64,000 nt of DNA from Patescibacteria group bacterium (GTDB lineage Bacteria > Patescibacteriota > Patescibacteriia > S139-126 > S139-133), in contig JBMYTV010000003.1 of the NCBI GenBank assembly GCA_049604715.1, positions 4,228 to 68,227 on the forward strand, written 5' to 3'. Made by a program: the position numbers and the translations under genes. The notes beneath the pieces are model-generated. The model searched no databases and had not been told where the DNA came from. It saw nothing but the letters and a program-made list of their open reading frames with translations. Shown piece by piece: positions 2,462-42,444 of this stretch; within the stretch, counting starts at the first letter, position 1, and every line of letters starts with the position of its first letter.

Positions 2462-2490
2462 TTGACTTTTGCTAAAAACTATGCTATAAT
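2462..2490 (+). promoter_or_regulatory. Near-consensus sigma70-type promoter
   Basis: TTGACT at 2462-2467, a 17-nt spacer, and TATAAT at 2485-2490. It lies ~60 nt upstream of the 2553 CDS. Confidence 0.5.
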
Positions 2491-2552
2491 ACCTGTAGTT
2501 ACGCTAAAAAAGCGTACACCCCTGCCACCAAAATTAGTGGCCAAAAACAAAA

Positions 2553-3188
2553 ATGAAAAATCAAAATACCACAATCACCTTGTCAGTAGCAAGTAGTGAC
2601 ACCACCCGTGAGATTCCAGTTCGCACTGGCTCACAAAACGGTTTTGTCGCTTTTATCAAAAATCTTTGGAATGTAATGCCAAAGACTCTTGCTGCTATTC
2701 TCGTGTTCGAAGTAATCGCTGTCTATGGGTTACTTTTTTTTATTGCCCCTACTTCAGCGACTTCTGCAACACTACAAAGCGAGTCTTATGCTATTACTGA
2801 TGATAGTATTATCGCTCTTACAAATAACGAGCGTAGTACATATGATATTGCACCACTTCGTTACAATACTGAACTCTCAAAAGCAGCAAGTGCTAAGGCT
2901 CAGTATATTCTAGATAATGACTCATTTAGTCATGAAGGCGAAGCTGGAGAAACCTTTTCTAGCTGGATTCGCTCAACAGGCTATACCTATACACGTGTTG
3001 GTGAAAACCTAGCTATTCATTTTGATAATCCTGATGATATTTTAGAAGCTTGGCTTGATAGCCCTACACACCGGAAAAACTTATTAAATCCCCTATTTGA
3101 AGACATCGGACTTGCAGTAGTTACTGGAGAGTATAAAGGCAAAACAACAACTGTTGTTGTGCAACTCTTTGGTACTGAAGTCCAATAA
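2553..3188 (+). CDS. Membrane-anchored CAP/SCP (YkwD-like) domain protein
   Basis: N-terminal TM segment. Motifs FSHEGEAGE...GENLA...WLDSPTHRKNLLNPLFEDIGLAV are typical of the bacterial SCP/CAP domain. Confidence 0.7.
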   Translation: MKNQNTTITLSVASSDTTREIPVRTGSQNGFVAFIKNLWNVMPKTLAAILVFEVIAVYGLLFFIAPTSATSATLQSESYAITDDSIIALTNNERSTYDIAPLRYNTELSKAASAKAQYILDNDSFSHEGEAGETFSSWIRSTGYTYTRVGENLAIHFDNPDDILEAWLDSPTHRKNLLNPLFEDIGLAVVTGEYKGKTTTVVVQLFGTEVQ

Positions 3189-3246
3189 TATTCCCTTACT
3201 TAAATAGGCCATAGTTGATATACTATGGTTAGAATTAATTGTATAT

Positions 3247-3758: not shown

Positions 3759-5330
3759 TTATACGAGTGACTGTCCAGACATTTGCTCTGGTTTTTCTAT
3801 ATTAAATAATTTCAAAATGGTCGGCGCAACATCAGCAAGAACTCCAACTGGAGTATTTAAATATAACTCTTTATATTCTGATACAGTTGCCTGCCCTTTC
3901 CACTGCTCCCCTATCATCATGAGTGGCACTGGATTAGATGAATGCTCTTTGTCAATTTTACCACTCTTGAGCTTGATAAGTTCTTCAGCATTTCCATGAT
4001 CAGCGGTAATGAGCACCACACCATTTTGGTTAAGTGTGAGTTCAATAATCTGACCCACACACTCATCCACGACCTGTACTGCATCAAGTGTTGCGTTCAA
4101 ATTGCCAGTATGGCCAACCATATCTGCATTCGCAAAGTTTATTAGAATAAATTCATAATACTGACTTGCAAGAGCATCTAATACTTTTTTTGTAATCTCT
4201 CGAGCGGCCATTTCTGGTTTGTCTGCATATGACTCTACTCGCGGAGATGGTACAAGAACATGTTCTTCATTATCCCATGGCTCCTCACGACCACCATTAA
4301 AGAAATATGTCACATGAGCGTACTTCTCTGTCTCTGCTATATGTAGTTGCTTAATATTGTTTTCACTCAAAACCTTTGCGAGTGGATTCCCTATCATAAG
4401 CGGTGGGAACGCAACCTCAACCGGTAGTCCCTTTTCATACTCAGTCATAGTAACCATAAACATACCCTCAAGATAATCCCGCTTAAAGCCATCAAACTCA
4501 AGTACAGTTAAAGCTTTGGTTATTTGGCGAGCACGGTCAGGTCTAAAGTTAAACATAACAACTGCATCATTCTTTTGAATGCCACGAAACGGCGTCTCTT
4601 CTGAAGTTATAACTGTTGGGATAAACTCCTCATCGAACACACCGCTCTCATATGAAGCCTCCAGAACTTGTATAGGATCTGAAGCTGTTATATCTGATTG
4701 ACCAAGCACCATGGCATTATATGCCTTTTCTACACGATCCCAGTGATTGTCACGATCCATGGCATAAAAACGACCTGACATTGACACTATATGACCAATA
4801 CCAAGCTTGGTAATAACCTTTTGTAGCTTTTTAATATATTTTACAGCAGAATCCTTTGGTGTATCACGACCATCCAAAAATGCATGGATATACACTTCCT
4901 TAAGGTCTTTCATCTTACACATCTCAAGTAATGCATATAAATGCTCCTCATATGAGTGCACACCACCATCACTAACCATGCCAATAATATGCAGTGCTGA
5001 TTGGTTACCTTGAGCATGATTGATAGCTTTTATAAAAGTCTGGTTTTCTACAAATTCGCCGTCAGATATTGCTTTAGTAATACGTGGGAGATTTTGATAA
5101 ATAATACGACCAGCACCCAAGGATAAATGCCCTACCTCTGAATTACCCTGCTCACCCCATGGTAAGCCAACTGCTTCACCAGCAGCCTGTAGAGTATAAA
5201 TAGGATAATGCCTGGCTATATTCTCGAAATGCTCCAAAGGTTTTGCAGTAATAGCATTACCTACAGATGGTTGCGCTACGCCCCAACCATCTAAGACCAT
5301 AAGAACTACTTTTTGTGTTGTTTGTGCCAT
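3759..5330 (-). CDS. gpmI: 2,3-bisphosphoglycerate-independent phosphoglycerate mutase (paralog 2)
   Basis: DGWG N-terminal motif, GNSEVGH (catalytic Ser region), ITADHGN and SNPVP C-terminal motifs, and an iPGM-typical length of 523 aa. Confidence 0.9.
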   Translation of the reverse strand: MAQTTQKVVLMVLDGWGVAQPSVGNAITAKPLEHFENIARHYPIYTLQAAGEAVGLPWGEQGNSEVGHLSLGAGRIIYQNLPRITKAISDGEFVENQTFIKAINHAQGNQSALHIIGMVSDGGVHSYEEHLYALLEMCKMKDLKEVYIHAFLDGRDTPKDSAVKYIKKLQKVITKLGIGHIVSMSGRFYAMDRDNHWDRVEKAYNAMVLGQSDITASDPIQVLEASYESGVFDEEFIPTVITSEETPFRGIQKNDAVVMFNFRPDRARQITKALTVLEFDGFKRDYLEGMFMVTMTEYEKGLPVEVAFPPLMIGNPLAKVLSENNIKQLHIAETEKYAHVTYFFNGGREEPWDNEEHVLVPSPRVESYADKPEMAAREITKKVLDALASQYYEFILINFANADMVGHTGNLNATLDAVQVVDECVGQIIELTLNQNGVVLITADHGNAEELIKLKSGKIDKEHSSNPVPLMMIGEQWKGQATVSEYKELYLNTPVGVLADVAPTILKLFNIEKPEQMSGQSLV

Positions 5331-5335
5331 ACCTT

Positions 5336-6901
5336 TTAGGTCATTATGCTATCAAATACCATTTGCCATGGCTTCTGCACTTCCATGCAGTGAAGAACCG
5401 TAGGTGCAATATGCCCTAGCACTCCTTGCCCTAGCTTCTTCTGCTCATGCGGATGATTTGAAACAATAATAAATGGTACTGGATTAGTAGAGTGCTCTGT
5501 ATCAACACCGCCTGTACCTGTGATTATTTCTTCTACATTACCATGGTCAGCTGTAATAAACAAATGACCGTTTTTTGCTAGCACTGCCTTAACTAAACGG
5601 CCAATATTCTCATCAATAGACTTTACCGCAGCGAGACTGGCCTCAAGGTTTCCAGTGTGACCAACCATATCTGCATTGGCAAAATTAGCAGCTATAAAGT
5701 CATACTCATCATTTTCTATCTTCTCTATGATGGTATCGGTTATCTGAGGAGTTGCCATCTCAGGAGTCTCATCATAAGACTTCACATTTGGCGATGGTAT
5801 AAGCATGCGTTCCTCTCCAGCTACAGGATCAGCATGTCCGCCATTGAAGAAAAAAGTAATATGAGCAAACTTCTCACTCTCAGCTATATAAAGCTGCCGC
5901 AAATCACCAAGCGCATATGGGAGTGTTCCTTCTAAGTCTTCTGAAGGAAATGCAGTAAGTATACTATCTAGATCAGGACCAAAATCAGTCATAGCCACAA
6001 ATACCAAGTTTTCTAATGTCTTTTTTCTAGTAAAACTTTTTGGGTTTTTTTCAGTAAAATCTGGTTGGACAAATACCTTTGATAACTGACGTGCTCTGTC
6101 AGATCGAAAATTGAAAAATATAACCGCGTCATTGTCATGTATACGCGATGGCTTACTGCTATCTGATGCTATGATCCTTGGTGTAATAAACTCATCCGAC
6201 TCTCCTTCTTCATATGCTTTTCGTATAGCCTCTTCAGAAGAACTGAACTTTGGAATGTTTGTCCCAAGTGTAAGTGTGTCATACGCAAGCTCAGTACGAT
6301 CCCAAGACTTACGTCTATCCATACCATAGAACCGTCCCATAATGGTTACAATCTGCTCGTTTGGTTGTAGCTTTTTCTCAAGCTCTGATACAAACGTCAG
6401 CCCTGAGAACTTCTCAGTATCCCTTCCATCGGTAAACAAATGCAAATAGACATGTTCTATTTTGCGTTTGCGAAATAACTCAACCAAGGCTATAAGATGC
6501 TCTGGATTTGAGTGACCAGAGTTAAAATCTGTCAAAAGACCAACCAAGTGAACTGATGATTCATGCTCTGTTACGTGCTGGACTGCTTGTTCAAAGGCAG
6601 CGTTTTTATAAAAAGTACCCTTTTCAATGCTATTTGATATTTTAAGAACGTCCTGCTCTACTATCCTACCTGCACCGATATTAAGGTGACCCGCCTCTGA
6701 GTTACCATCTTGATGTGGAAGCAAACCAACTGCTGAACCAGATGCACCTAGCATGGCATGGGGATACTCCTCCCACAGATGATCCATAATAGGAGTTTGT
6801 GCGAGTTTGATAGGATTTTTTTCTTGTTTTGGGGCTAGTCCCCAGCCATCAATAACCACTAACACTGCTGGACCTGCCTTTTGCGTAGAACTCATATGCA
6901 A
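5336..6901 (-). CDS. gpmI: 2,3-bisphosphoglycerate-independent phosphoglycerate mutase (paralog 1)
   Basis: VIDGWG, GNSEAGH, ITADHGN and STNPVP motifs. It is a divergent tandem paralog of the adjacent gene. Confidence 0.85.
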   Translation of the reverse strand: MHMSSTQKAGPAVLVVIDGWGLAPKQEKNPIKLAQTPIMDHLWEEYPHAMLGASGSAVGLLPHQDGNSEAGHLNIGAGRIVEQDVLKISNSIEKGTFYKNAAFEQAVQHVTEHESSVHLVGLLTDFNSGHSNPEHLIALVELFRKRKIEHVYLHLFTDGRDTEKFSGLTFVSELEKKLQPNEQIVTIMGRFYGMDRRKSWDRTELAYDTLTLGTNIPKFSSSEEAIRKAYEEGESDEFITPRIIASDSSKPSRIHDNDAVIFFNFRSDRARQLSKVFVQPDFTEKNPKSFTRKKTLENLVFVAMTDFGPDLDSILTAFPSEDLEGTLPYALGDLRQLYIAESEKFAHITFFFNGGHADPVAGEERMLIPSPNVKSYDETPEMATPQITDTIIEKIENDEYDFIAANFANADMVGHTGNLEASLAAVKSIDENIGRLVKAVLAKNGHLFITADHGNVEEIITGTGGVDTEHSTNPVPFIIVSNHPHEQKKLGQGVLGHIAPTVLHCMEVQKPWQMVFDSIMT

Positions 6902-8169: not shown

Positions 8170-9357
8170 TTATTTAACTAATGGTAGTAATCCAGGTTGG
8201 CGTCTATCTGAAATAAAAGATAATAACGCCCCACCTCCAGTTGATGCAAATGTAACATCATCAAGCAAACCAAGACGAGCAAACACCCGTACTGTTTCTC
8301 CGCCACCTATAAAACTCTTCATTGACCCATCATGAGTACGCGCTGCAATAAATTCAGCAATTGCCTCTGATGCATGAGAGCCTTGTCGCTGTTCAATCAT
8401 ACCAAGTGGCCCATTCCATAGTACTGACTTGGCTTTGCGCAGTTGAGATACATACTCTAGTACCGTGTTCATACCAAGATCTACGATTGCATCTTTTTTC
8501 AAAACGCTTTCAATGTCTTTTAGTTGTGACTCAATTTTCTTAGTACTTGTATCATCACAAATGCAGTCTGTAGGAAGTAGTACTTTTTTGTGACGTGCTA
8601 ACACCTTGCCCTCAGTAACAAAATCTTTTTCATAAATTGATGCACCTACTTCTTGCCGTGCGCTCTTAAGTATTGTGTTAGCAAGTACACCCCCAACTAA
8701 TACTCTTTCTGCTTTTGGCATTAGTTTTTGTATAAGTGGAAGTTTTGTAGCAGCTTTTGCACCTCCCATGATCAAGAAATGTGGTTTTGTTGGCTTGGCA
8801 ATAAACTTATCCAATGTACTAACTTCTTTATCCATCAGAAGCCCAGCATAGCTTGGCAAAAACTCTGGTATACCAGTCATACTTGCGCTGTCACGATGAA
8901 TAGCTCCAAATGCATCATTAATAAACACATCACCAAGGCTTGCTAGGTCATGTGCGAATGTATTGTCACTAACCTCCTCACCAGGATGAAACCGCAAATT
9001 CTCCAAAAGGACAACTTGGCCTGGCTTCATCCTGTCGAGGTGACGGCGGGCCCCCTCACCCTCATGCAAGGGTATCATTTTTACTGGTTTACCCAGTAGC
9101 TTTCCCAGCGTGATAGCAACTGGTTTAAGCGATAAGTTTGGATCTTCCTTTCCATGCGGACGTCCACGGTGCGATAAGATAATAACTTTTGCACGCTTCC
9201 GTATCAGATAACGAAGTGTAGGGATAGTAGCCTCTATCCGGTACCGTTCATCAGCATGCACACGTCCTTTTTCGTCTGTCTCAACATTATAATCAACACG
9301 ATATAAAACGCGTTTAGCCTGAAGTGTATGGAGTTGTGTGCAAACCCGTAGCTTCAT
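8170..9357 (-). CDS. pgk: Phosphoglycerate kinase
   Basis: RVDYNVE near the N-terminus, GGGA/GGGETV glycine-rich motifs, and typical 395-aa length. It sits 2 nt upstream of eno. Confidence 0.9.
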   Translation of the reverse strand: MKLRVCTQLHTLQAKRVLYRVDYNVETDEKGRVHADERYRIEATIPTLRYLIRKRAKVIILSHRGRPHGKEDPNLSLKPVAITLGKLLGKPVKMIPLHEGEGARRHLDRMKPGQVVLLENLRFHPGEEVSDNTFAHDLASLGDVFINDAFGAIHRDSASMTGIPEFLPSYAGLLMDKEVSTLDKFIAKPTKPHFLIMGGAKAATKLPLIQKLMPKAERVLVGGVLANTILKSARQEVGASIYEKDFVTEGKVLARHKKVLLPTDCICDDTSTKKIESQLKDIESVLKKDAIVDLGMNTVLEYVSQLRKAKSVLWNGPLGMIEQRQGSHASEAIAEFIAARTHDGSMKSFIGGGETVRVFARLGLLDDVTFASTGGGALLSFISDRRQPGLLPLVK

Positions 9358-9392: not shown

Positions 9393-11012
9393 TCAGGCAT
9401 TTTTTGCCTGCTTCTTCAAAGGCAATTCAACAACAAATGTTGTTCCTTTGCCCTCACCTTGGCTTTTGGCAGCAATTGAACCACCATGACCTTCTATAAT
9501 CTTCTTTACAATAAATAATCCAAGGCCCGTGCCACCTGCGTCAATTTGTGCAATGCCCTTGGCGCGAGAAAACTTTTCAAACAAATGCTCAGCATACTCA
9601 GGATCAATACCAACACCAGTATCATGCACTTTGACAATAACAGAATCAGGTTTTTTCTCAGTTGTAACCCATACCTTACCCGCTGGTGTGTATTTGATAG
9701 CGTTATCTACTAGATTAACCATCACATCTTTGAGCTTATCTGAGTCACCAGTAAACGGCAGACTTTCACCAGCACCAACATAGTCTAGTTCTAGGCCTTT
9801 TTTCTGAGCGATCGGATGTAGCTGGTTTACTACATCAGTAATAAGATCTTTTACATCAAAGTCTACCTGTGCAATTTTTAGTCTTCCTGATTCAATACGC
9901 GATACATTGAGGAAAACTTGCACCAAACGCGCCAAACGCTCCACTTCATCATATACACGCGTCAATGACTCATTTTGTTCTTTATTAAAGTTGCCAAAGT
10001 CACCAGCAATGATCATAGAGAGATAGCCCTTGATACTTGAGAGTGGTGTACGGAGTTGGTGTGAGGTGATTGATAAAAACTCTGTCTTGGCTTCATCTAG
10101 TTTTTTGAGTTTTTTGTTTGCGGTCTCTAATTCCTTTGCTAGAGATTCGATTTGCTTCCTTCTTTCAATTTCACGTACAACACTCCTAACAAGCATAACA
10201 CCAATAACTATAGTAGTGGTTAGAATTAACCCGTTTCCAATAAAATCTACCAAAGTTGGCGAAGTGATAAATTCCAATAGAGATACTAGTATCAGAGCAC
10301 CTACTAGTAATTCTGTTGCGATAACTCTTATATTAAGCAAATGATGTCGGATTATTGCGTATGAAGTAAATAATACAAACGGCAGTGTATATAAATGACC
10401 ATACCTGACACTTGATAAGTCTTGCAGAGCAACTGGATAAATAAAATTAAATATTAACACCAAGGTCACCGTGGTAATTAAACCGATCCCCAAGAATTTC
10501 CACTGTTGACGAACTATACCCTTTGCTAACCGCCATGACCTCACCAAAGTTACTATGGCCAGAGAAATAAATGCTAAAGAGTAAATAGCAAACAATAACA
10601 TACCTGGACCAGCAACAGGCGTAGGGACATGTCTAGTAGTATCAAGATGAGTAAATAAGAAAGGAGAACGGGCTATAAATACCATTAAAACCATTAAAAA
10701 CAGAAATAAGAACCCCCTTTTAAGACCGATCACACTCTTATTGTGTAGAAAACTCTTGGTTAATAGATAAAACAATAACGGGTGAGGTATTGCAGCTGCT
10801 ATTGTCCACTTTGCAAAATTTAATATAGATTCATGCGTACTATTTATCGCAAAAAAGTTTACCATAATCCAAATTGTCTGGGAAATGCCAAATAGTGCGA
10901 AAAAAATAGCGTCCTGTCTTCTTGCGCGAGACCTAAGCACTAGGGATACCAAAAAAAGATTAACTAAGGCTACTAAGACTAATAGAGCAAATTCGACTTC
11001 TCCAAATGACAT
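9393..11012 (-). CDS. Sensor histidine kinase (multi-TM N-terminus; HisKA + HATPase_c)
   Basis: About 6-7 N-terminal TM helices, a coiled linker, the H-box SITSHQLRTPLSSIKGY, and N/G-box motifs (DNAIKYT, DTGVGI, GGTGLGL). No response regulator is adjacent. Confidence 0.85.
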   Translation of the reverse strand: MSFGEVEFALLVLVALVNLFLVSLVLRSRARRQDAIFFALFGISQTIWIMVNFFAINSTHESILNFAKWTIAAAIPHPLLFYLLTKSFLHNKSVIGLKRGFLFLFLMVLMVFIARSPFLFTHLDTTRHVPTPVAGPGMLLFAIYSLAFISLAIVTLVRSWRLAKGIVRQQWKFLGIGLITTVTLVLIFNFIYPVALQDLSSVRYGHLYTLPFVLFTSYAIIRHHLLNIRVIATELLVGALILVSLLEFITSPTLVDFIGNGLILTTTIVIGVMLVRSVVREIERRKQIESLAKELETANKKLKKLDEAKTEFLSITSHQLRTPLSSIKGYLSMIIAGDFGNFNKEQNESLTRVYDEVERLARLVQVFLNVSRIESGRLKIAQVDFDVKDLITDVVNQLHPIAQKKGLELDYVGAGESLPFTGDSDKLKDVMVNLVDNAIKYTPAGKVWVTTEKKPDSVIVKVHDTGVGIDPEYAEHLFEKFSRAKGIAQIDAGGTGLGLFIVKKIIEGHGGSIAAKSQGEGKGTTFVVELPLKKQAKNA

Positions 11013-11029
11013 GGGTCGTATATTAAAGA

Positions 11030-12100
11030 TTAATAATAAGTTGGTTCCGACTTATAACTTCGTGAAATTGAATCTGTATCATTCACTGACTTCCCTATCC
11101 TAGAAAGCATTAAAATCTCCTCTTCGTCTTCGAGATTAAATATCCCTTTTATAGAATCATATATGCTCAGTACTTTTTCTGATTGTGCCCTAGACAAAAA
11201 GTCAACACTCCGCCTATTTTCATTTATCCTATGACGGAGATATATCAGAGCAGCTACTGGTTGTAGTGATAGTTGTTTGGAGGTTAAATGAAGCCAAATT
11301 CTTTGAAGTAATATCCCTACATCAAGATAAAGTTTTTGTTTTTTCACATTTTTAGTAGTACTTAACAAGATATAGGAATCTGTTTCAGAATAGAGCCCTG
11401 CCGAATCTTTAGAGATTAATTTCGTTAAACCTAGAATCTTAGCTAATCTAGCTAAACCGTCAAAATTGAGTAGCAACCTAAAAACAAATTCTTTTTCTTT
11501 TTCCAAGGCTAATGTTCTTATGTACAAACCCTTTCTTTTTTCTTTATGTACCCTCTCTTTCCAAACTATAGATGACAATAAAGAACTTCGAATGAATTTG
11601 TTCTCTAAAATCAGCATCTCATTATAAGACAATAATTTTGCAATCTCATTTACTTTAGTGGATTGACTTACCACTTTAACGAACACCTTCTTGTCAGAAA
11701 AACTTTTAAGTGTGTTAATGACCGAATCTTGAACACTATTCTTTAAGTATGGACGTCTATCTGTAAATCTATTTTTTATACTTTCATAATTTTCATCGAG
11801 TTTTTTTTCAGACTTTGTAAATTCAACCTTTGCAACAATATCACTACATTTATCAGGAAAATAAAACAAATTGCAACCATATCCCTTATATGAAGAGATA
11901 ATCCTTATATTTTCTAATAACGCACCTACAGCCACTAAGCTACCTCTTTTTTGGTAATTGTAAGCTTCGTTATCATTCGATGCAGTACATTTAATAAACA
12001 ACACATCATTCTTGATTCTAAATCTCCAAGGCTGAGAATTGTCACCTGAAGGAGCTTCAACAGCTTCTACGAGTATTTCTTTTATCTTCTGTTCTAGCAT
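11030..12100 (-). CDS. Nitroreductase-superfamily (FMN-dependent, SagB/McbC-like) oxidoreductase
   Basis: APSGDNSQPWRF motif (nitroreductase family S-x-N-x-QPW-F). A second RRPY-type segment suggests a two-lobed architecture. It is the last gene of a 4-gene operon. Confidence 0.55.
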   Translation of the reverse strand: MLEQKIKEILVEAVEAPSGDNSQPWRFRIKNDVLFIKCTASNDNEAYNYQKRGSLVAVGALLENIRIISSYKGYGCNLFYFPDKCSDIVAKVEFTKSEKKLDENYESIKNRFTDRRPYLKNSVQDSVINTLKSFSDKKVFVKVVSQSTKVNEIAKLLSYNEMLILENKFIRSSLLSSIVWKERVHKEKRKGLYIRTLALEKEKEFVFRLLLNFDGLARLAKILGLTKLISKDSAGLYSETDSYILLSTTKNVKKQKLYLDVGILLQRIWLHLTSKQLSLQPVAALIYLRHRINENRRSVDFLSRAQSEKVLSIYDSIKGIFNLEDEEEILMLSRIGKSVNDTDSISRSYKSEPTYY

Positions 12101-12107
12101 AAATAAG

Positions 12108-13550
12108 TTATTTTTTGGTAATTATTTTTGGTTTACCTGTAGAATCTAGGTATACTCCATTAACCTGCTTTGGATAAAAGTTCTTTTCATTATATTCTTT
12201 GAATACGATACTTGGCAGAGCCTTGCTCTTTATCATCTCTAATAACTTACTATACTCTATATTCAGCCTTTTTAAATTCCTTACTATACTTTCCAGTATA
12301 ATGACTTTATCAGCATCTGTTAAATCAGCTACTTTTAAATTCTTTGAAAGCTCTAAAACTAATGTGAAAATTTCTTCTTTGCTTTTATTCTTTAACTTCG
12401 AATATGAGAAAAACTTACCGGTTAAGAATTTCTTACACTCTCTGGACTCAATGCCTGCCAAAATATGTTCTGGGTATATGTGTAGTGCGTAGAAAGTCAC
12501 ACAAACATTAGACCTACCTGTAACTGCTACAATTGGTAGATTCCAAGCTGGAAATTTTTCAACAATATTCCTTATCAACTTTGAGTCACTCTTTTTTAAT
12601 AACTCGTTTATTGTTAGCACACAGCCCTTATCTTTAATGTTGTATCTAACCAAGGGAATAGGCGTGTTGATAGTAATGATCAATTGTTTATTAACACGTT
12701 CAAAGAAAATAGATCTGGGATGGAATTGGTATAACCCAGGCACAGCATCAACGCTATCGAACAACGTCATTAACAATGAAGTGGGGAGTTTTTTTCTTAA
12801 ACTGATGGTCAGCGGTGTTTCGTAAGCCATTTTACCAGCATCAGTAGACCCGTAAACGCTACATATAGAAAAAGGGTCTCTTTGTCCCAAAACAGTTAAC
12901 AAATCATCTCTCCATTCTTCAGAAATTTTACTTCCCGTAACTAAAACTTTGTATTTCTTATTATTGTCAAGCAACTTTAATTTTTTAGCCTCTAATACTA
13001 TATCCATTACAAAAGCTGGGTGGCCTGCAAGTACTATATTTTTATAAAAATTACCTAAAGATGACAAGACTGACAATGTTCTTTCAACCGAGTATCCTGG
13101 GGTAGCTGTGGTTATATTAAATCCTTGCCTAGATAGCCCACGGCATGCAGCTAATGTATGGTGACCAGCCATCCAAAGGTCCATTGCAAAACTAATTACC
13201 ACTAAAGTGGGCTCACCTTTTTTAATGTTATACAGCCCACTAAATAACTTTTTATGTGATAATAAACTAAGCGCCTCTTGTTGATCACTTCCAAACCAAA
13301 ACGTAGGACTACCTGTTGAGCCTGAGCTGGCATAAACAATAGGAGGCTTGCTTAATTTATCCTGTAACTGATCCACTGAGTACTTCAAAATGTAACTTTC
13401 TTTCGAAGTAAGGGGTATTTGCGACCATTCTATGTATGAGCCAACCGATTTTCTTGTATTATAATCGCTTAACTCCAGGTAACTAGCGTAGGCTGGAACA
13501 TTCTTTATAGCATGATAATAAGTTTGTTTTGCGTTTACAAATCCTTGCAT
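12108..13550 (-). CDS. Adenylate-forming enzyme, PaaK / coenzyme F390 synthetase-like (ANL superfamily)
   Basis: YASSGSTGSPTFW matches the PaaK/F390-synthetase P-loop (SSG[ST]TG.P). 480 aa. Confidence 0.6.
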   Translation of the reverse strand: MQGFVNAKQTYYHAIKNVPAYASYLELSDYNTRKSVGSYIEWSQIPLTSKESYILKYSVDQLQDKLSKPPIVYASSGSTGSPTFWFGSDQQEALSLLSHKKLFSGLYNIKKGEPTLVVISFAMDLWMAGHHTLAACRGLSRQGFNITTATPGYSVERTLSVLSSLGNFYKNIVLAGHPAFVMDIVLEAKKLKLLDNNKKYKVLVTGSKISEEWRDDLLTVLGQRDPFSICSVYGSTDAGKMAYETPLTISLRKKLPTSLLMTLFDSVDAVPGLYQFHPRSIFFERVNKQLIITINTPIPLVRYNIKDKGCVLTINELLKKSDSKLIRNIVEKFPAWNLPIVAVTGRSNVCVTFYALHIYPEHILAGIESRECKKFLTGKFFSYSKLKNKSKEEIFTLVLELSKNLKVADLTDADKVIILESIVRNLKRLNIEYSKLLEMIKSKALPSIVFKEYNEKNFYPKQVNGVYLDSTGKPKIITKK

Positions 13551-13552
13551 TG

Positions 13553-14566
13553 TTACTTAGTAAAACTATTATAATTAATTAGATAATTTCCACAAATCTG
13601 TTTCGTTAAGAGTATGCTTCTGACAGCATCACTTGCCACCGCACCAGCCACCATTGAAGTTGTTCCTAACTGTGGTATTGAAACCAATGTACTACCAACT
13701 TCCTTTAGGGAACTCCGTAACCTATCTCCTGGCTCAAAACCTATTATTTTATTAGCAATTCTAATCCAATCTTGCTTGTTTAATAAATGCCCAGCATCTA
13801 CTATCTTCTCATCTTTTAATACGCCGTGAAACAACTCTTGGTCTTCACTGATGTCATACCTTTCAATGCTAATTACAACTTCTTCACCAAAGTCAGTAGC
13901 CATGACTACTGGAATTTTGTTCACTTTACAGTATTTTCTCAACTCAATTTTTATACTTATGTCATCGACAGCGTCTACTAAAACATCAATATTTTCGTTT
14001 ATCACAAAATCATTAATATTACTTTTCTGTACTCCACAATCAAAAAACTTCATATCTATAAATGGATTTACCTCCCAGGATTTTCGCATAGCAACCTCAC
14101 CTTTTAAAGAACCATAATCAACCAGGCCAGCGTTTATCCGGTTTAGGTTAGTAACCTCTACCGTGTCAAAATCTGCTAAAACAAACTTGTTTCCAACAGC
14201 CGATCGTAGTAAACCATCTAATACTTTCGAACCTACTGACATCCCTGCTATTCCAATCTTTGAATTGTATACCTTTACCTGCTCAGCTTGTCGAATCAAG
14301 TTTTTATTCCGTGAGGTAATTAAATCGACATAAAAATCTTCGCCGGGTAAACAGAAAACCCTATCTAACCAATCGTAATGAGCCCACACTCTTTTAATAT
14401 TATGGTGGCACACAAATTCACTTACCAAACTGTCACTTATACTATTCTTTAACTTTGGATTATCAATTAAAACCAACTCCCTTATACAATCATTGAAAAT
14501 ATTAACAATTTCAACTTCTGTATTGAACTTTGGTTTTTCTTCATATATTGTAGGCTTCTCAATCAC
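13553..14566 (-). CDS. ThiF/MoeB/E1-like adenylyltransferase with ~100-aa N-terminal extension
   Basis: Rossmann nucleotide-binding motif KIGIAGMSVGSKVLDGLL at about residue 105. The N-terminal extension precedes the E1 fold, as in MccB/PaaA-type peptide-binding E1-likes. Confidence 0.6.
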   Translation of the reverse strand: MIEKPTIYEEKPKFNTEVEIVNIFNDCIRELVLIDNPKLKNSISDSLVSEFVCHHNIKRVWAHYDWLDRVFCLPGEDFYVDLITSRNKNLIRQAEQVKVYNSKIGIAGMSVGSKVLDGLLRSAVGNKFVLADFDTVEVTNLNRINAGLVDYGSLKGEVAMRKSWEVNPFIDMKFFDCGVQKSNINDFVINENIDVLVDAVDDISIKIELRKYCKVNKIPVVMATDFGEEVVISIERYDISEDQELFHGVLKDEKIVDAGHLLNKQDWIRIANKIIGFEPGDRLRSSLKEVGSTLVSIPQLGTTSMVAGAVASDAVRSILLTKQICGNYLINYNSFTK

Positions 14567-14569
14567 TTG

Positions 14570-16120
14570 TTAATAGATTAGGGTATTAAAGTTCTTTCTA
14601 AATGCCTCTAAATTACTTGTGAAGTCCTTATCTTTATACCAAACAGGAAATACAGCTCTTACTTTTTTATAGAGTTTATCAGAAGATTTTGAGATTTCTT
14701 CATTTACACCCATCACATCGGTAGCCTGTGCAAGAGTAATCAATCCAACCCCGATAATTTGTTTTATAGCCTCAATAACCTGATAACTTAATAACGAAGA
14801 ATTAGTGCCCATGCTAACAATATCTTGATTGTCAGCATTTGTTGTTATGCTGTGTACATAATTAGGAAAACACAAGGTCTGTATTTCAGCGGTTGTGGAT
14901 GTGGCAACAAATTGCAACCCTTGTAAGGCTATATCAAATCCTGGCTTACGTAGATTTAGGAATGGAGGTAAGTGGTCTCGGACATTTGGGTTGAGAAAGA
15001 TATTAACATGTCTTTCTACAGTCATCGCGATACGTGATAGTCCAATCTTTACTTTATCCATCTCGAATGACACGTAATCCCCATGAAAATTTCCTCCATG
15101 TAATAGGGTATCAGCCTTTCCATTGGTTATTGGATTATCTGTTACTGAATTAATCTCGACTTCTATAACTCGTTTTGCATTTTGTATAACTTCCCAAATA
15201 GGACCGTATATCTGAGGCAAACAACGTATTGAGTATACATCTTGAACTTTATGATCAATTTTTCTCACATCGTGCTTTCCTACGTCAATTTTTTTTGCTA
15301 AATCTAATCTATGCTGTAGTAATTTTGACGTACTAAGTGCATTTCTCATTTTCTTAGCAACAAAAATCTGACCTTTATGTGGACGTAGCGCCTGGATTTC
15401 ACTACTTATAGGGTCATCAAACCCAGCCATAAGTTCATATGTGTATGCTCCTGCAACTATAGCCAAATCGATTATCTTACGTGCCTCATATAAAACCAGC
15501 GATCCAATTCCGGACATGGCCGCCGTACCGTTTATTAAGGCCAAGCCTTCCTTTGATACCAAGTTGCTAGGTTTAATTTTTAATCTTTTTAGTACGCTAC
15601 TTGTTTTTTTTACTCTACCTTTATAATAAACCTTTCCCTCTCCAATCAAAGCTAATGCAACGTGTGCTAACTGGACAAGGTCTCCGCTTGCTCCTACAGA
15701 ACCATAGCGTGGAACAGCTGGGACAATACCTGAGTTGATATATAGCTCAATTTGTTTAATAAGCGACCACCTAACCCCAGACCTACCTTTCAATAGCGTA
15801 TTTAATCGCACTAACATAACTGACATACACTGCTGTCTAGTTAAGTATTCGCCCATTCCAGTCGCGTGACTACGTATTAGGTTATATTGCAATTGATTAA
15901 TTTGCTTCTTACTCAACACGTACTGCGCCATAGGACCAAATCCTGTATTCACACCGTATGTTAAAACCGATTCGCCGATTTTCTCAACAAACTTTCTTGA
16001 CTTATCTACTTTGATTTTACATTTCGCATCTACCCTTACCAACACTCCGTTATTTGTAACCTGCCATATTTGATCAATGGTTAAATCCCCTCCCGTTAGA
16101 ACAACAGGTTTACTTGGCAT
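14570..16120 (-). CDS. MIO-dependent aromatic amino-acid ammonia-lyase/aminomutase (HAL/PAL/TAL family)
   Basis: GSVGASGDLVQLAHVAL contains the Ala-Ser-Gly triad that forms the MIO cofactor, and the context is HutH-like. The 516-aa length matches the family. Confidence 0.8.
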   Translation of the reverse strand: MPSKPVVLTGGDLTIDQIWQVTNNGVLVRVDAKCKIKVDKSRKFVEKIGESVLTYGVNTGFGPMAQYVLSKKQINQLQYNLIRSHATGMGEYLTRQQCMSVMLVRLNTLLKGRSGVRWSLIKQIELYINSGIVPAVPRYGSVGASGDLVQLAHVALALIGEGKVYYKGRVKKTSSVLKRLKIKPSNLVSKEGLALINGTAAMSGIGSLVLYEARKIIDLAIVAGAYTYELMAGFDDPISSEIQALRPHKGQIFVAKKMRNALSTSKLLQHRLDLAKKIDVGKHDVRKIDHKVQDVYSIRCLPQIYGPIWEVIQNAKRVIEVEINSVTDNPITNGKADTLLHGGNFHGDYVSFEMDKVKIGLSRIAMTVERHVNIFLNPNVRDHLPPFLNLRKPGFDIALQGLQFVATSTTAEIQTLCFPNYVHSITTNADNQDIVSMGTNSSLLSYQVIEAIKQIIGVGLITLAQATDVMGVNEEISKSSDKLYKKVRAVFPVWYKDKDFTSNLEAFRKNFNTLIY

Positions 16121-16123
16121 ATA

Positions 16124-17119
16124 CTACAATCGTTCAATAGCAATTTCTACAAGTCGATTCGCATACCCCCACTCATTGTCATACCAAGCAACAACTTTCA
16201 ATAAGTTGCCACCAACAACATTGGTGAGAGATAAATCAACTATGCATGATGCGGGATTGCCAATAATATCTGACGATACAATCGGTTCAGAGGTGACTTC
16301 CATGACTCCTGATAAATCACCCGCTGCCGCAGCGTTTAATACTTCGTTCACTTCCTCCACAGTGACGTCTTTTTTGGTAACAAAGGTCAGATCTGACAGT
16401 GACCCGGTAATAACTGGCACTCGTATTGCCATTCCATCAAATGATCCTTGCAAACTTGGGATAACTTTCGTAGTTGCAATCGCAGCTCCTGTAGTTGTTG
16501 GCACAATATTGTGAGCTGCTGCTCGAGCGCGCCGTAAATCTTTGTGCGGTCCATCAACTAATCTTTGATCAGCAGTATATGCATGTACTGTAGTCATCAT
16601 AGCCTTGTCGATCCCAAATGCATCTTCAACAACCTTTACAACAGGTGCAATACAATTTGTAGTGCATGATGCATTGCAAGCAACATTTTCTTTATCATCC
16701 ATACTATCAGCAACACCCTTCACCAGTGTGGTTGTAACTTCGTCCTTAGCTGGCGCTGAAATAACTACGCGCTTAGCACCTGCTTTGGTGTGTGCAGCTG
16801 CTAACTCCTTTGTTCTAAAAATACCTGTACACTCCAAGACAACATCCACGTCTAAATCACCCCAAGGAAGTTTTGCGGGGTCTTTCTCACTGTAGACTGG
16901 GATACTCGCACCATCTACGATCAAATGTGTATCATCACTCTTAACTTCGTGTGTGTATTTGCCATACACAGAATCATACTGCAAAAGATGCGCTAGTGTT
17001 GCCTTATCTGTCAGGTCATTTACACCAACTACCTCAACATCATCGCGATCATACATCACACGAAAAGCCGCCCTCCCTATTCTTCCAAAACCATTAATGG
17101 CAATACGTTTTTTTGACAT
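16124..17119 (-). CDS. gap: Glyceraldehyde-3-phosphate dehydrogenase
   Basis: INGFGRIGR NAD-binding motif, and SCTTNC containing the catalytic Cys. Confidence 0.95.
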   Translation of the reverse strand: MSKKRIAINGFGRIGRAAFRVMYDRDDVEVVGVNDLTDKATLAHLLQYDSVYGKYTHEVKSDDTHLIVDGASIPVYSEKDPAKLPWGDLDVDVVLECTGIFRTKELAAAHTKAGAKRVVISAPAKDEVTTTLVKGVADSMDDKENVACNASCTTNCIAPVVKVVEDAFGIDKAMMTTVHAYTADQRLVDGPHKDLRRARAAAHNIVPTTTGAAIATTKVIPSLQGSFDGMAIRVPVITGSLSDLTFVTKKDVTVEEVNEVLNAAAAGDLSGVMEVTSEPIVSSDIIGNPASCIVDLSLTNVVGGNLLKVVAWYDNEWGYANRLVEIAIERL

Positions 17120-22681: not shown

Positions 22682-25600
22682 TTAACGAATCAAAAGCATC
22701 TTTTTCACCTTGTGAAACGACTCTGTTGATATGCGGTAAAAATACATACCGCTCGCAACATTTCGTGCGTCCCACTGCACATGGTGATATCCGGCATTAT
22801 GCCGCTCATCAACCAAACGAGCAACCTCCTGTCCTAGGAGATTGTATACCACGATTTTCACATGAGTATCATGAGGTAAATCAAACGCTATAGTCGTCAT
22901 TGGATTAAAAGGATTGGGGTAATTTTGATGGAGATTGTACTCTGTTGGCAATAGTGAGATGACTTCATCGTCACCAGCGCTTTGCTTAGCAAGTAGATTA
23001 GCATCATACGGAAGACCACTGCCATCTGCATACAGATCTGTAATCTCACTACTACTCAGCATCCGAGACCACATACCAAGCTGATCAACAGCGCCATTGG
23101 CATAGGGCGCATTACCGTTTTCCCAAGCACCAACCCTGAATACAGCTGCGCTGGTATTGATCGTAGTTGGCAAACCGCCAAGACTGTCGGTAAGAACACC
23201 ATCCTTGTACACGCGAACACTTCCAATTGACATATCATATACCCAGACAAAGTGGTACCACGCATTACTACTGATAGCACCAATATCCAGATATACTTGT
23301 GATGTAGTGTTATTTGTACCGTCTGCAGAAATTACTACCTGAGCCTTGTTACCACTACTAAGTTTCCTAATACATACCATATAGCTTCGATTGGGCTGGC
23401 CATCATCCTTGTAGACAACTGGAAACTTTGTTTTTGTTTCCCATGACTTTGGATGCAGCCATGCTGATATCGTAAAGCTACTGGCTAGATCAAGGCCATA
23501 CTCTGTGCCTGGTTGAATTGACAAATACTCACTGTTACTTGCTGTAAAATCAGCCGCAACATCCTGGATGCCAGCAAGCGACGTAACAGTGTTGTTGTCA
23601 GCCAAATCATTTGAACCATGGGCATCGTATCGCGTGCCACTGGTCTCATTCATCTCCCAGAAAGAAACAAGATCATCAGTCAGTGTCGCATGGTGTGCAA
23701 TATCAGGCTCACTCGGAACCATCACCGTGTCATTACTTGCTGCACGATACACCACCTGCAGCACCGGCCGTTTTGCTACATCAACATGATCAGCAGTAGC
23801 AACCTGCACGTACGATCCGCGTCCCCACACACCGGCATACTCATTCACCGTCATATCGAGGATGTCATCACCTTGCCGCAGAGCAAGTGTAGTCATGCTA
23901 CTCAGATCGATCCATGACCTTCCAGCAGAATCAAGCTCTATCACCACTGTGCTATCAAGATGCAGTGCAAAATCCGTTGGTGCAAAATACAACCGCTCAG
24001 CACCTTCGATAGGGTTAGATATTGCACCCATGTGGCTGTAATCACCTGCTGTAACCGGCAAATCGTACGTCCCGCGTGTTACCCCGAGAAAGTGCGACTG
24101 ACCTTGAGAATTCCGGTAATCAACCACATGCATCTGCAGCGTCGCAGCTACTATTTCAACAGTATCAGGCAACACTGAGGTATCAAATGGCAATGCATAC
24201 CGCCGAATATCACCCCATGCCGGCCCATCAAACTGACTTACGCCAATCTGAACCACTGTAGCATCAACCGATTCAACCACGCCAGTTGCCAGGTCATGAT
24301 GATATGACCAAGAGGTCTGGTAACCATAATTACCATCCTGCACCACTACATCAGCGGCATCAGCATAGATCAGCACGGTATCGCAATCAGCACACGCAGT
24401 TGTTGTATCATCCATGACTGTTGTGACAGTTGTAAGCACTGCTTCTGCACTTGGTGTTCCACCACGCTGGTGCGTAGATACATCAGTCAGGTCATCATTA
24501 AACGGCCAATATCCGATGAGTCCACTATCAGCGGTCGCATAATACTCTGTACTGAGCGTCACGTCTTTAGTTGCATTAATCTGGCTTTGCGTGCGAGTAC
24601 GATTCCACACACGCACTTCATCAACATAGCCATTGATCACAGCGCGATTGTAATAGTACATATTGTCATCCGATCCACCAATATACCATGGATAGTCTGC
24701 CTGCCAGGTTGACCCGCAATTACCAGGCTTTGTAGAAACTAGGTTACCATCAAGAAAAAGCTGAATACCAGCAGAGCCATTATAAGTAGCTACGATATGG
24801 TACCAACGATCAAGCTCTAAACTCACAGGATACTCTGCAACATCAGCCGTACCGCTAATAAAGCAATAGATCTTGGATGGTGTCAGACCAAGCTCAAACA
24901 CAGGATTGTTGTGCTCGTTATGCCAGTTGCTAATAATCGCACCTGTTGAAAGCGCATTCAAATACACCTTGCCTTCAAAGGTAAACTGATTACCACTCAT
25001 ACCACCAGATGCCGCCTCAACACGATCCTTATGCCCATCAAAGGCAGCGACTGTATCTATCACTGTTGTGGTTTGCTCTGCCTGCGGATTTGCAACAGTC
25101 ACTGTATATGGATACCGCACTGTTGCCAAAGTACTTAGGTTCTCTCCTTGACTAAGTACTTGTACTTCATAGCGTGAGACATCAGTTGGTAGTGTGAATA
25201 TAGGACTGAGCCATACTGTATCTTGCGCAAAAGACAGTGTGTCATCTGCAGGATTCACATTCCAGTACGACGTTCCGTACGAATCATATAGCCGCACACG
25301 GAAATTAGGCAGTACTACTTTCTGGCCATCATCTTCATCGTGATCAAATGCCACGCGCACGTACACCTGACTTTCAGGTGTATGTTCACGCTTGATTGAA
25401 TCACCAACAGCGTTACTTAAGAACACGCTCGACACATGCACAGAATCAATACCCCAGGGTTGATACACACTAAACCCAAGTGGATTTTGTGCGCCATCAA
25501 TATCCTGGTAGTCCAGTCCATCATGTGCAGACACCCATAGCTCGTGCGCACCCAGATTGTACATTGGATCCATCACTGCGCTAAATGTCAGACTGTCATA

Positions 25601-41900: not shown

Positions 41901-42444
41901 ACATGTTGATGCTGTTGTACGTATAGCAGGTGTGGTGACCAAATTACAACGTATTTTGACACGTAAAGGCGATAGTATGTTATTTGCCTCTCTTGAAGAT
42001 CACACTGGACTTACAGAAGCACTTATATTCCCCAAGCTCTTAGCTAAAACACAACATATCTGGATTGAAGGTACGACTATTTTTATACAAGGCAAAGTAT
42101 CTGACAAAGATGGAGAGATCAAACTACTTGCTGAAAGTGTACAACCTATTAACCTTGAAAAACTCAAAAACGTAACAAATGAGAAAATTCAACATGCAAC
42201 CCAGTCATCATTTGTAATTGATGATAAAGGCGACCGCATAGTGTTGCATTTACCAAAAAGGCCCCAACCAGAACTACTTGAAAAACTAAAAAACCTATTT
42301 GTAGAGCATCCTGGTGAGCATCAAGTACACCTGCGTATTGTTGAGCATGATGATGCAACCACGATTGCCACCCAATTTTCCATTGGGTATAATGAATATG
42401 TAGGTGAGAAAATAAAAGTTCTCATGTTTGAACACTTAGTATAA
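38983..42444 (+). CDS. dnaE: DNA polymerase III alpha subunit
   Basis: PHP domain N-terminus [17 protein letters not shown], polymerase core motifs, and a 1153-aa length. Confidence 0.95.

Follow-up and report, generated by a model that had tools for sequence, protein, structure and literature searches.

In Pseudoalteromonas rubra, the ThiF-nitroreductase di-domain protein OxzB is an oxazolone synthetase acting on N-acyl tyrosine or phenylalanine supplied by the acyltransferase OxzA (bioRxiv 10.1101/2020.06.11.147165; review PMC12596934). In Mycobacterium tuberculosis, TyzA N-acylates tyrosine or phenylalanine, TyzC, a flavin-dependent oxidase of the nitroreductase superfamily, desaturates, and the ThiF homolog TyzB cyclizes with ATP (PMC10404671); Rv1355c, or TrzS, is a fusion of ThiF and flavin-dependent oxidase which, together with the acyltransferase TrzA, produces N-acyl tryptazolones (PMC12856293). 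Clusters of NasY, ThiF and nitroreductase (NTR) genes have been linked to N-acyl dehydrotyrosines (PMC12479983). What the oxazolones do is left unexplained in the papers that describe them, where signaling is suggested (bioRxiv 10.1101/2020.06.11.147165; PMC12856293). Here we consider an operon in a 64-kb stretch of contig JBMYTV010000003.1, from a metagenome-assembled genome (MAG) of a Patescibacteria group bacterium (the whole stretch is called the window below). Its genes encode an ammonia-lyase/aminomutase dependent on 4-methylideneimidazol-5-one (MIO), a ThiF/E1-like protein (E1), a PaaK-type ANL-superfamily enzyme (ANL), an NTR-superfamily protein and a histidine kinase with a seven-transmembrane (7TM) region. 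Our reading, to which we assign a probability of about 0.55, is that the operon makes an oxazolone-type or N-acyl-dehydroamino-acid small molecule from aromatic amino acids and is physically coupled to a membrane sensor kinase.

A first-pass annotation, made from the sequence letters and their translations, had described four tightly packed minus-strand genes (MIO, E1, ANL and NTR) forming an operon. Both the coordinates (Table 1) and the spacings of 3, 2 and 7 nt are as claimed, the same open reading frames (ORFs) are called by the NCBI annotation, and Pfam, NCBIfam and structure searches agree with all four family calls. The operon is in fact longer, since two neighbors had been overlooked: a HisKA_7TM kinase gene, which starts 17 nt downstream of the NTR stop and brings the unit to five genes, and the gap (GAPDH) gene, whose end is just 3 nt upstream of that for MIO. 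The motifs quoted for the MIO enzyme (GSVGASGDL) and for the ANL (SSGSTGSPT) are both there; that of the NTR is SxxNxQPWxF, one residue longer than the SxNxQPWxF first given.

The E1 and NTR proteins are by their sequence a predicted split form of the ThiF-flavin oxidase oxazolone synthetases (OxzB, TyzB/TyzC, TrzS/Rv1355c). E1 matches Pfam ThiF (E = 5e-19), and its best NCBIfam family is the Rv1355c family, at 210 bits over model positions 37-325 of 722, with the next family at 75 bits. The Rossmann motif, GIAGMSVGS, occupies residues 104-112, so that the earlier call of a ThiF/MoeB/E1-like protein with a Rossmann motif some 100 residues from the N-terminus stands; the kinship it drew for the E1-NTR pair, with thiazole/oxazole-modified microcins (TOMMs) such as microcin B17, does not. 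The N-terminal extension of about 95-100 residues is a feature common to the Rv1355c family, because the profile match covers it, starting from model position 37 at residue 19 of the protein. Across the E1 orthologs (29-42 aligned) GxGxxG, AD.D.....NLNR, K155, D201 and R210 are conserved, no cysteine is conserved among 42 orthologs, and the ATP-binding and catalytic motifs are intact. D201 would be the aspartate counterpart of TrzS D217, an equivalence drawn without a direct residue alignment. One candidate identity was set aside: TcdA, the tRNA ct6A dehydratase, is the best PDB sequence match (E = 2e-10), but the NCBIfam TcdA model scores 52 bits versus 210 for the Rv1355c family. E1 is best described as a putative stand-alone counterpart of TyzB and of the ThiF half of OxzB and TrzS, with a predicted function as an ATP-dependent cyclase.

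The NTR protein (motif SGDNSQPWRF) points the same way from the other side of the fusion. It matches Pfam Nitroreductase only weakly, and in NCBIfam it matches PRK14851 at 144 bits (positions 328-661 of 679), the Rv1355c family at 133 bits (374-708 of 722) and the Acg family at 108 bits; the first two matches lie in the C-terminal halves of ThiF-NTR fusion families, and at E <= 0.01 NCBIfam gives no match beyond the ThiF-NTR fusion and Acg families. Its AlphaFold model (predicted local distance difference test score [pLDDT] 92.8) has as top PDB match 2ymv, an Acg homolog (E = 8e-15, TM 0.71/0.77), with all other matches at E >= 1e-5, more than 9 orders of magnitude behind, and no TOMM-type dehydrogenase among the top 50. 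APSGxNxQPW and R111/R115 are invariant in the NTR orthologs. We propose that this protein is an Acg/TyzC-like flavin-dependent oxidase of single-chain fold, serving as the C-alpha/C-beta desaturase.

Natural fusions join these proteins to one another and to the other enzymes of the operon. A word-indexed search for E1 homologs returned only stand-alone E1s of the Patescibacteria type, and an exhaustive profile search with the E1 orthologs was needed to reach the fusions; it gave 1,317 representatives below 1e-30, and the best 150 of these were inspected. They include at least 36 E1-NTR fusions of 700-780 aa, two ANL-E1 fusions (P0216 and P0217, the latter also with an N-terminal dehydrogenase like the tryptophan dehydrogenase ScyB) and one E1-MIO fusion (P0230); fusions of E1 or E1-NTR with an alpha/beta-hydrolase also exist (P0184, P0294). 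Three of five E1-NTR fusions tested pass the 476-bit cutoff of the Rv1355c family (P0181 at 534, P0288 at 805 and P0303 at 685 bits), and two fall below it (P0178 at 452 and P0194 at 382 bits). The genes around the fusions are those of the split module: NTR - [dehydrogenase-ANL-E1] - hydrolase - 7TM kinase in locus L086, [E1-MIO] - ANL - NTR - kinase in L088, and dehydrogenase - ANL - [E1-NTR] - kinase in L089 and L090, the context in which P0181 is found. The fusions E1-NTR, ANL-E1, dehydrogenase-ANL-E1 and E1-MIO thus place all four enzymes in one pathway and bridge the split Patescibacteria form to the TrzS-type architecture. In L086 and L087 the alpha/beta-hydrolase has a gene of its own (9732-10607 in L086), placed between those of the fusion enzyme and the kinase; such a hydrolase might open an oxazolone ring or release the product.

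The module recurs widely. With one genome per species, an alignment of ANL orthologs yielded 80 loci, which were then examined by tblastn with the five window proteins and by ORF clustering. The search for the same gene set in the neighborhoods of other genomes, which the first-pass annotation had recommended, found 44 independent loci with ANL adjoining E1, or 43 if one from Nocardia is left out, with NTR detected in about 35 of the 44, the kinase in 37 and MIO in 20; the trio of E1, ANL and kinase is shared by about 43 species-level genomes. Gene order is shuffled (MIO-E1-ANL-NTR-kinase, E1-ANL-MIO-NTR-kinase, NTR-E1-ANL-kinase, ANL-E1-NTR-kinase and others), and the same strand is shared by 124 of 132 adjacent pairs of module genes, with a median gap of 1 nt. 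This arrangement is far beyond chance. The carriers are Doudna-, Wildermuth-, Nomura-, Yanofsky-, Nealson- and Lloydbacteria, Paceibacteria, Saccharimonadales and unclassified MAGs. Further accessories in the loci include an S-adenosylmethionine-dependent methyltransferase and an alpha/beta-hydrolase; no other conserved ORF of at least 80 aa, beyond the named families, recurs in the 44 loci, with ORFs under 80 aa lying outside the screen. Six loci (L034, L038, L039, L063, L072 and L076) are recorded under the labels uncultured Gammaproteobacteria or Pseudomonadales; they have a G+C content of 37-43% and carry ANL, E1 and kinase. A divergent NTR is present in only 2 of these 6, the kinases are about 740 aa long in 5 of 6, and L038 and L076 also have an MmyB-like helix-turn-helix regulator.

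The ANL is divergent in database terms, with no Pfam match and a score of 19 bits (E = 3.5e-4) against PaaK TIGR02155, for which the cutoff is 646 bits. Foldseek searches with its AlphaFold model (pLDDT 83.1) return PaaK1/PaaK2 (E = 3e-15), BT_0428, AjiA1 and the ligase ClxA, in a range from E = 3e-15 to 3e-11, as well as 2-hydroxyisobutyryl-CoA ligase. The motifs of the family are conserved in its orthologs (20-42 sequences): the P-loop SSGSxGxPxFW, YGxxDA and PLxRYNIxDxG. Judged by the model, it is a divergent PaaK-type adenylate-forming enzyme with a predicted two-domain fold, and the original assignment to the ANL superfamily, of PaaK/F390-synthetase type, is upheld by SSGSTGSPT and the PaaK fold despite the silence of Pfam. 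Its proposed function is that of an amide ligase that makes the N-acyl amino acid in place of the acyltransferases OxzA, TyzA, TrzA and NasY, as its position, its co-occurrence with E1 and the fusions would suggest. PaaK-type enzymes that need no coenzyme A (CoA) to link an aryl acid with another small molecule have been described, namely, NatL2/BomJ (PMC7204872) and ClxA (PMC12519233). No recurrent acyltransferase family of the GNAT or N-acyl amino acid synthase (NAS) type was found in the 44 neighborhoods. ANL homologs of about 30% identity also occur outside the module context in Cyanobacteria and Actinobacteria: in L005 (Scytonema hofmannii) the homolog lies beside an EAD1-NACHT STAND protein, an unrelated context, and in L050 (Nocardia sp.) the arrangement CHAT-ANL-ThiF-esterase looks more like a conflict system.

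The MIO enzyme is securely a member of its family, matching Lyase_aromatic (PF00221) at E = 1e-158 over residues 13-488, with the MIO-forming Ala-Ser-Gly triad in GSVGASGDL, as first reported, and the inner-loop Tyr55 in YGVNTGFG. Among NCBIfam models, FlxA tyrosine ammonia-lyase ranks first at 595 bits (below the NF053541 equivalog cutoff of 700), followed by HutH at 454 (below its cutoff of 539) and the aminomutase models at 409 and 401, the latter being tyrosine 2,3-aminomutase. Among PDB entries, the tyrosine aminomutase SgTAM comes closest (E = 1e-92). The residue that corresponds to Glu414 of the Pseudomonas putida histidine ammonia-lyase (HAL), which is Glu in histidine lyases and Gln in tyrosine and phenylalanine ammonia-lyases (TAL and PAL) (PMC3992019, Fig. 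S1 legend), is Gln in the window enzyme. Its sequence there is NADNQDIVSM, and the same N-Q-D is present in all 21 module-linked MIO enzymes examined. The reference sequences in this alignment were compared at the motif level only. With Gln at the HAL-specific Glu, a HutH score under the cutoff and no adjacent Hut genes, histidine catabolism by an ordinary HutH was rejected, as the earlier description of the enzyme had also implied. The substrate is probably tyrosine or phenylalanine rather than histidine, with tyrosine the likeliest, and we propose the enzyme as the supplier of the acyl-donor acid, p-coumarate or cinnamate.

The first-pass annotation had overlooked that MIO is an accessory open to exchange. 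The gene occurs in 20 of the 44 loci, and elsewhere its slot holds a Glu/Leu/Phe/Val-type dehydrogenase (best model ScyB, 293 bits) or, as a third alternative, a class I aminotransferase. That three unrelated deaminating enzymes share one slot fits a deaminated acid as the acyl donor. The MIO genes of the module fall into three clades, FlxA-like, HAL-like carrying Gln and PAL-like. Most of the FlxA-like enzymes (L004, L006, L008, L009, L014-L017, L019, L020, L029 and L066) have Thr-Ser-Gly (GAVGTSGDL) instead of Ala-Ser-Gly.

The pathway we envisage would begin with deamination of an aromatic amino acid, most likely tyrosine and possibly phenylalanine, to an aryl-acrylic acid by the MIO enzyme. 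The ANL would then adenylate this acid and join it, at the amino group, to an amino acid. E1 would in turn adenylate the carboxylate of the resulting N-acyl amino acid and cyclize the molecule to a 5(4H)-oxazolone, by homology to OxzB, TyzB/TyzC and TrzS; likewise by homology, the Acg/TyzC-like flavin oxidase would introduce the C-alpha=C-beta double bond. The product would be a 2-styryl-4-arylidene-oxazolone or the ring-opened N-acyl-dehydroamino acid; with tyrosine as both donor precursor and acceptor, the oxazolone would be 2-(4-hydroxystyryl)-4-(4-hydroxybenzylidene)oxazol-5-one. The kinase may sense this product or a related cue, making synthase and receptor a pair, and this is the least certain step. 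The order of events put forward in the first-pass annotation, from a deaminated aromatic acid through adenylation or ligation to E1 activation and flavin oxidation, was close to the model favored here.

Several observations weigh against this model. E1 and NTR, at 210 and 133 bits, both lie below the 476-bit cutoff of the fused Rv1355c-family model, and for every member of the clade the substrates, and even amide formation by the ANL, are predictions. No deaminase gene is present in about half of the loci, so the acyl donor need not come from an amino acid. The sequence of the MIO enzyme is compatible with both lyase and aminomutase outcomes, and a beta-amino acid would lead to different ring chemistry; moreover, in the E1-MIO fusion P0230 the MIO part scores above the cutoff for tyrosine 2,3-aminomutase (TIGR03832). 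A GNAT-type NAS is found neither in the operon nor in its flanks, a view limited to 64 kb, and may lie elsewhere in the genome. On the signaling side, the link between kinase and module runs in one direction, with module genes near only 5 of 14 full-length kinase homologs on metagenome contigs that extend 5 kb or more upstream, and tblastn with 20 receiver proteins of related loci detects no response regulator in the 64-kb window.

The same oxazolone-type product could also arise if the ANL were an ordinary aryl- or acyl-CoA ligase, forming, for example, p-coumaroyl-CoA, and a separate NAS elsewhere in the genome performed the N-acylation. We consider this unlikely, though it has points in its favor. 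Bona fide CoA ligases (PaaK1/PaaK2, 2-hydroxyisobutyryl-CoA ligase) are among the closest structures of the ANL, pairs of TAL and 4-coumarate-CoA ligase are known (FlxA/FlxY; PMC3992019), all characterized oxazolone systems use acyl-CoA and an NAS, and the visible part of the genome amounts to 64 kb. However, the ANL scores 19 bits where a PaaK equivalog must reach 646, and it is always there, even fused to E1, in neighborhoods where no acyltransferase family is conserved; an E1 coupled to a CoA ligase but never to the maker of its own substrate would be odd. Quite improbable, in our estimate, is that E1 and NTR act on some other carboxylate, such as an N-acyl beta-tyrosine made by an aminomutase, to give a six-membered oxazinone or another heterocycle and hence a new scaffold instead of an oxazolone. 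The tyrosine aminomutase as best PDB match of the MIO enzyme, the aminomutase-level score of the P0230 domain and an E1 clade below the Rv1355c equivalog cutoff, which makes substrate drift possible, would all accord with such chemistry. Yet the window MIO enzyme scores higher as an FlxA lyase (595 bits) than with either aminomutase model, the dehydrogenase and aminotransferase that replace it cannot make beta-amino acids, and E1 relatives of the same profile, with identical genes around them, do exceed the Rv1355c cutoff.

E1-like and nitroreductase-superfamily proteins co-occur in TOMM clusters, and the E1 of the window has an N-terminal extension of about 95 aa; on this basis, E1 might activate the C-terminus of a peptide or protein and NTR oxidize an azoline, as in the peptides that are made on ribosomes and altered after translation (RiPPs) or in protein C-terminal modification. 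This is very improbable and was rejected. The first-pass annotation had already remarked that YcaO and a precursor gene were missing, and rightly so: YcaO is found neither in the operon nor in the 44 loci, the gaps of 2-17 nt are too short to hold a precursor gene, and among ORFs of at least 80 aa none beyond the named families recurs in these loci. Moreover, the flavoprotein has the Acg-type fold and not the SagB/McbC type, E1 has no conserved Cys, and its N-terminal region aligns with the Rv1355c family, whose characterized member acts on small molecules (PMC12856293). A housekeeping role, in which aromatic amino acids or histidine are catabolized and the kinase is a nutrient sensor, or else a role in anti-phage defense, is improbable to a similar extreme. 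The operon does lie among glycolytic genes, but the flanking genes differ among loci, no hydratase, lyase or thiolase gene for phenylpropanoid breakdown is present in any locus, and the MIO enzyme has Gln for the HAL Glu, with no Hut genes adjacent. For defense one can cite weak PADLOC matches of E1 to E1-E2 (Cap2-like) models and the distant ANL homologs beside NACHT or CHAT proteins in Cyanobacteria and Nocardia. These PADLOC matches are generic to the Rossmann region (33 bits or less) and there are none for MIO, ANL or NTR, and defense was dismissed on this account.

The kinase consists of HisKA_7TM, HisKA and HATPase_c domains (Pfam), the phospho-acceptor His318 is conserved, and its gene often overlaps the preceding one by 4 nt. 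The 7 of 44 loci without a clustered kinase comprise five that are short or end beside the module, L025, with a partial kinase at the contig end, and L050, the Nocardia locus. The Nocardia locus aside, loci that extend far enough all carry the kinase. We propose that the kinase is a sensor of the pathway product or of a related cue, or a regulator of the operon. The idea of a photoreceptor with a covalent chromophore, coumaroyl or azlactone, in a kinase like photoactive yellow protein (PYP) or rhodopsin was abandoned, as the 7TM regions of 38 kinases have neither a Lys nor a Cys in common. In two independent loci, L013 (15742-17913) and L017 (14248-17525), genes for a receiver-only response regulator, a receiver-fused T2SSE (PilB-like) ATPase and T2SSF (PilC) lie directly downstream of the kinase, neighbors that hint at type IV pili as the output. 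A T2SSE ATPase is also near the module in L002 and L008. The contig of L006, on which no kinase was found, encodes three multi-pass membrane proteins, paralogs of one another and about 255 aa long, without a Pfam match (2463-3236, 4529-5302 and 8381-9136), their genes interleaved with E1, MIO and ANL; as relatives of the kinase sensor they were discarded, having no BLAST similarity to its 7TM region. A true circuit of signal and receptor in this module is a tentative notion, and we would sooner doubt it than rely on it. Taken to its full extent, a self-contained Patescibacteria communication circuit would have a labile aromatic oxazolone or N-acyl-dehydroamino-acid autoinducer made from scavenged aromatic amino acids, the 7TM kinase as receptor, and receiver-domain proteins, including receiver-fused PilB-type ATPases, leading to type IV pili and so controlling how cells attach to hosts or move from one host cell to another; this we regard as doubtful.

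The genomic setting of the operon is glycolytic, with gap upstream and pgk, eno and two tandem iPGM genes downstream (Table 1), so that the operon is interposed between gap and pgk. This context is incidental, because the flanking genes vary among loci. The G+C content is 0.34-0.37 over the operon region (9393-16120) and 0.39-0.42 in the flanks, and this, together with the position inside a glycolytic string, suggests horizontal acquisition. A scan for promoters and terminators gave the same counts as shuffled sequence, and the whole 64-kb window contains no tRNA gene and no Rfam family at the gathering threshold. Two large ORFs lie elsewhere in the window.

Table 1. Genes of the module and other features of the 64-kb window
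Feature	Position	Strand	Length and remarks
MIO ammonia-lyase/aminomutase gene	14570-16120	(-)	516 aa
ThiF/E1-like gene	13553-14566	(-)	337 aa, GTG start
PaaK-type ANL gene	12108-13550	(-)	480 aa
Nitroreductase-superfamily (NTR) gene	11030-12100	(-)	356 aa
HisKA_7TM histidine kinase gene	9393-11012	(-)	539 aa; last gene of module
gap (GAPDH) gene	16124-17119		upstream of MIO gene
iPGM gene	5336-6901		tandem with the next
iPGM gene	3759-5330		
Large ORF	22682-27280		1532 aa
Large ORF	38983-42444		1153 aa

Patescibacteria have tiny genomes and almost no biosynthesis, and yet the five-gene module is kept in many of their lineages, which argues for an important role. The gene combination had been taken as undescribed. 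This is not so for its core, since E1 plus NTR is the known oxazolone synthetase pair, but in the literature searched we found no description of E1 and NTR in the company of a kinase, a deaminase and a ligase of the PaaK type, and no paper linking oxazolones or this gene set to Patescibacteria. The module suggests an extension of the oxazolone pathway in which the N-acyl amino acid is formed by a PaaK-type ligase instead of an acyl-CoA-dependent GNAT, and its products are probably fully aromatic and strongly conjugated. With a kinase in the conserved operon as candidate receptor, the proposed signaling by oxazolones becomes testable. If it were true, this would be the first physiological role assigned to oxazolones made by ThiF and NTR proteins and the first dedicated signaling molecule of these episymbionts. 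From a more utilitarian perspective, the ligase, cyclase and oxidase are potentially useful biocatalysts for azlactone synthesis.

Several known systems share parts of the module. The flexirubin enzymes FlxA/FlxY and the TAL and p-coumarate-CoA ligase (pCL) of the PYP system likewise set an MIO enzyme like tyrosine ammonia-lyase beside an adenylate-forming enzyme, and for PYP it is a sensor protein that uses the product. Unlike in both, the ligase of the module is of the PaaK type and not of the 4-coumarate-CoA ligase type, and neither polyketide machinery nor a PYP/PAS domain is present. The benzoxazole pathways (NatL2/BomJ, AjiA1 and ClxA) have in common with the module the PaaK fold and, if our model is right, the joining of an aryl acid as acyl-adenylate to a second molecule before heterocycle formation. 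Identity to their enzymes is only 14-17% in the structural alignments. Those enzymes link one aminohydroxybenzoate to another and have an amidohydrolase as partner, whereas the ANL of the module is paired with ThiF and NTR proteins and its amide-forming activity is a prediction. In CqsA/CqsS, LqsA/LqsS and agrBDCA, autoinducer synthase genes accompany a histidine kinase that crosses the membrane several times. What the module would share with them is the placing of genes that make a small, labile molecule beside such a kinase; the enzymes are unrelated, the window has no adjacent response regulator and the kinase family also occurs free of the module. TOMM clusters of the microcin B17 type (McbBCD) share an E1-like protein and a nitroreductase-superfamily flavoprotein with the module, which differs in having no YcaO or precursor and a catalytically intact E1 of the Rv1355c type.

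Closer in gene content are the NasY-ThiF-nitroreductase clusters behind the stieleriacines and the thalassotalic and kyonggic acids (PMC12479983), which have the same ThiF and nitroreductase pair, tiny gaps between genes and an occasional methyltransferase. They are defined by an NAS, NasY, which the module does not have, and are in turn without its ANL, its MIO or dehydrogenase and its kinase. By analogy with them, the end product of the module may be a ring-opened dehydro-N-acyl amino acid rather than an oxazolone. Closest of all are OxzAB, TyzACB and TrzAS. Unlike these, the module has a co-operonic 7TM kinase, genome-reduced Patescibacteria hosts and separate proteins that score below the equivalog cutoff. 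Where the three described systems have a GNAT-type NAS, the module always has a divergent PaaK-type ANL, and where they take a fatty acyl group from acyl-CoA, its acyl group is probably aromatic, given the frequent deaminase. What is common to them is aromatic amino-acid chemistry, extended in some module loci by a methyltransferase accessory, and a ThiF-like cyclase with an Acg/TyzC-type oxidase, either separate or fused, both of which forms occur in the module family.

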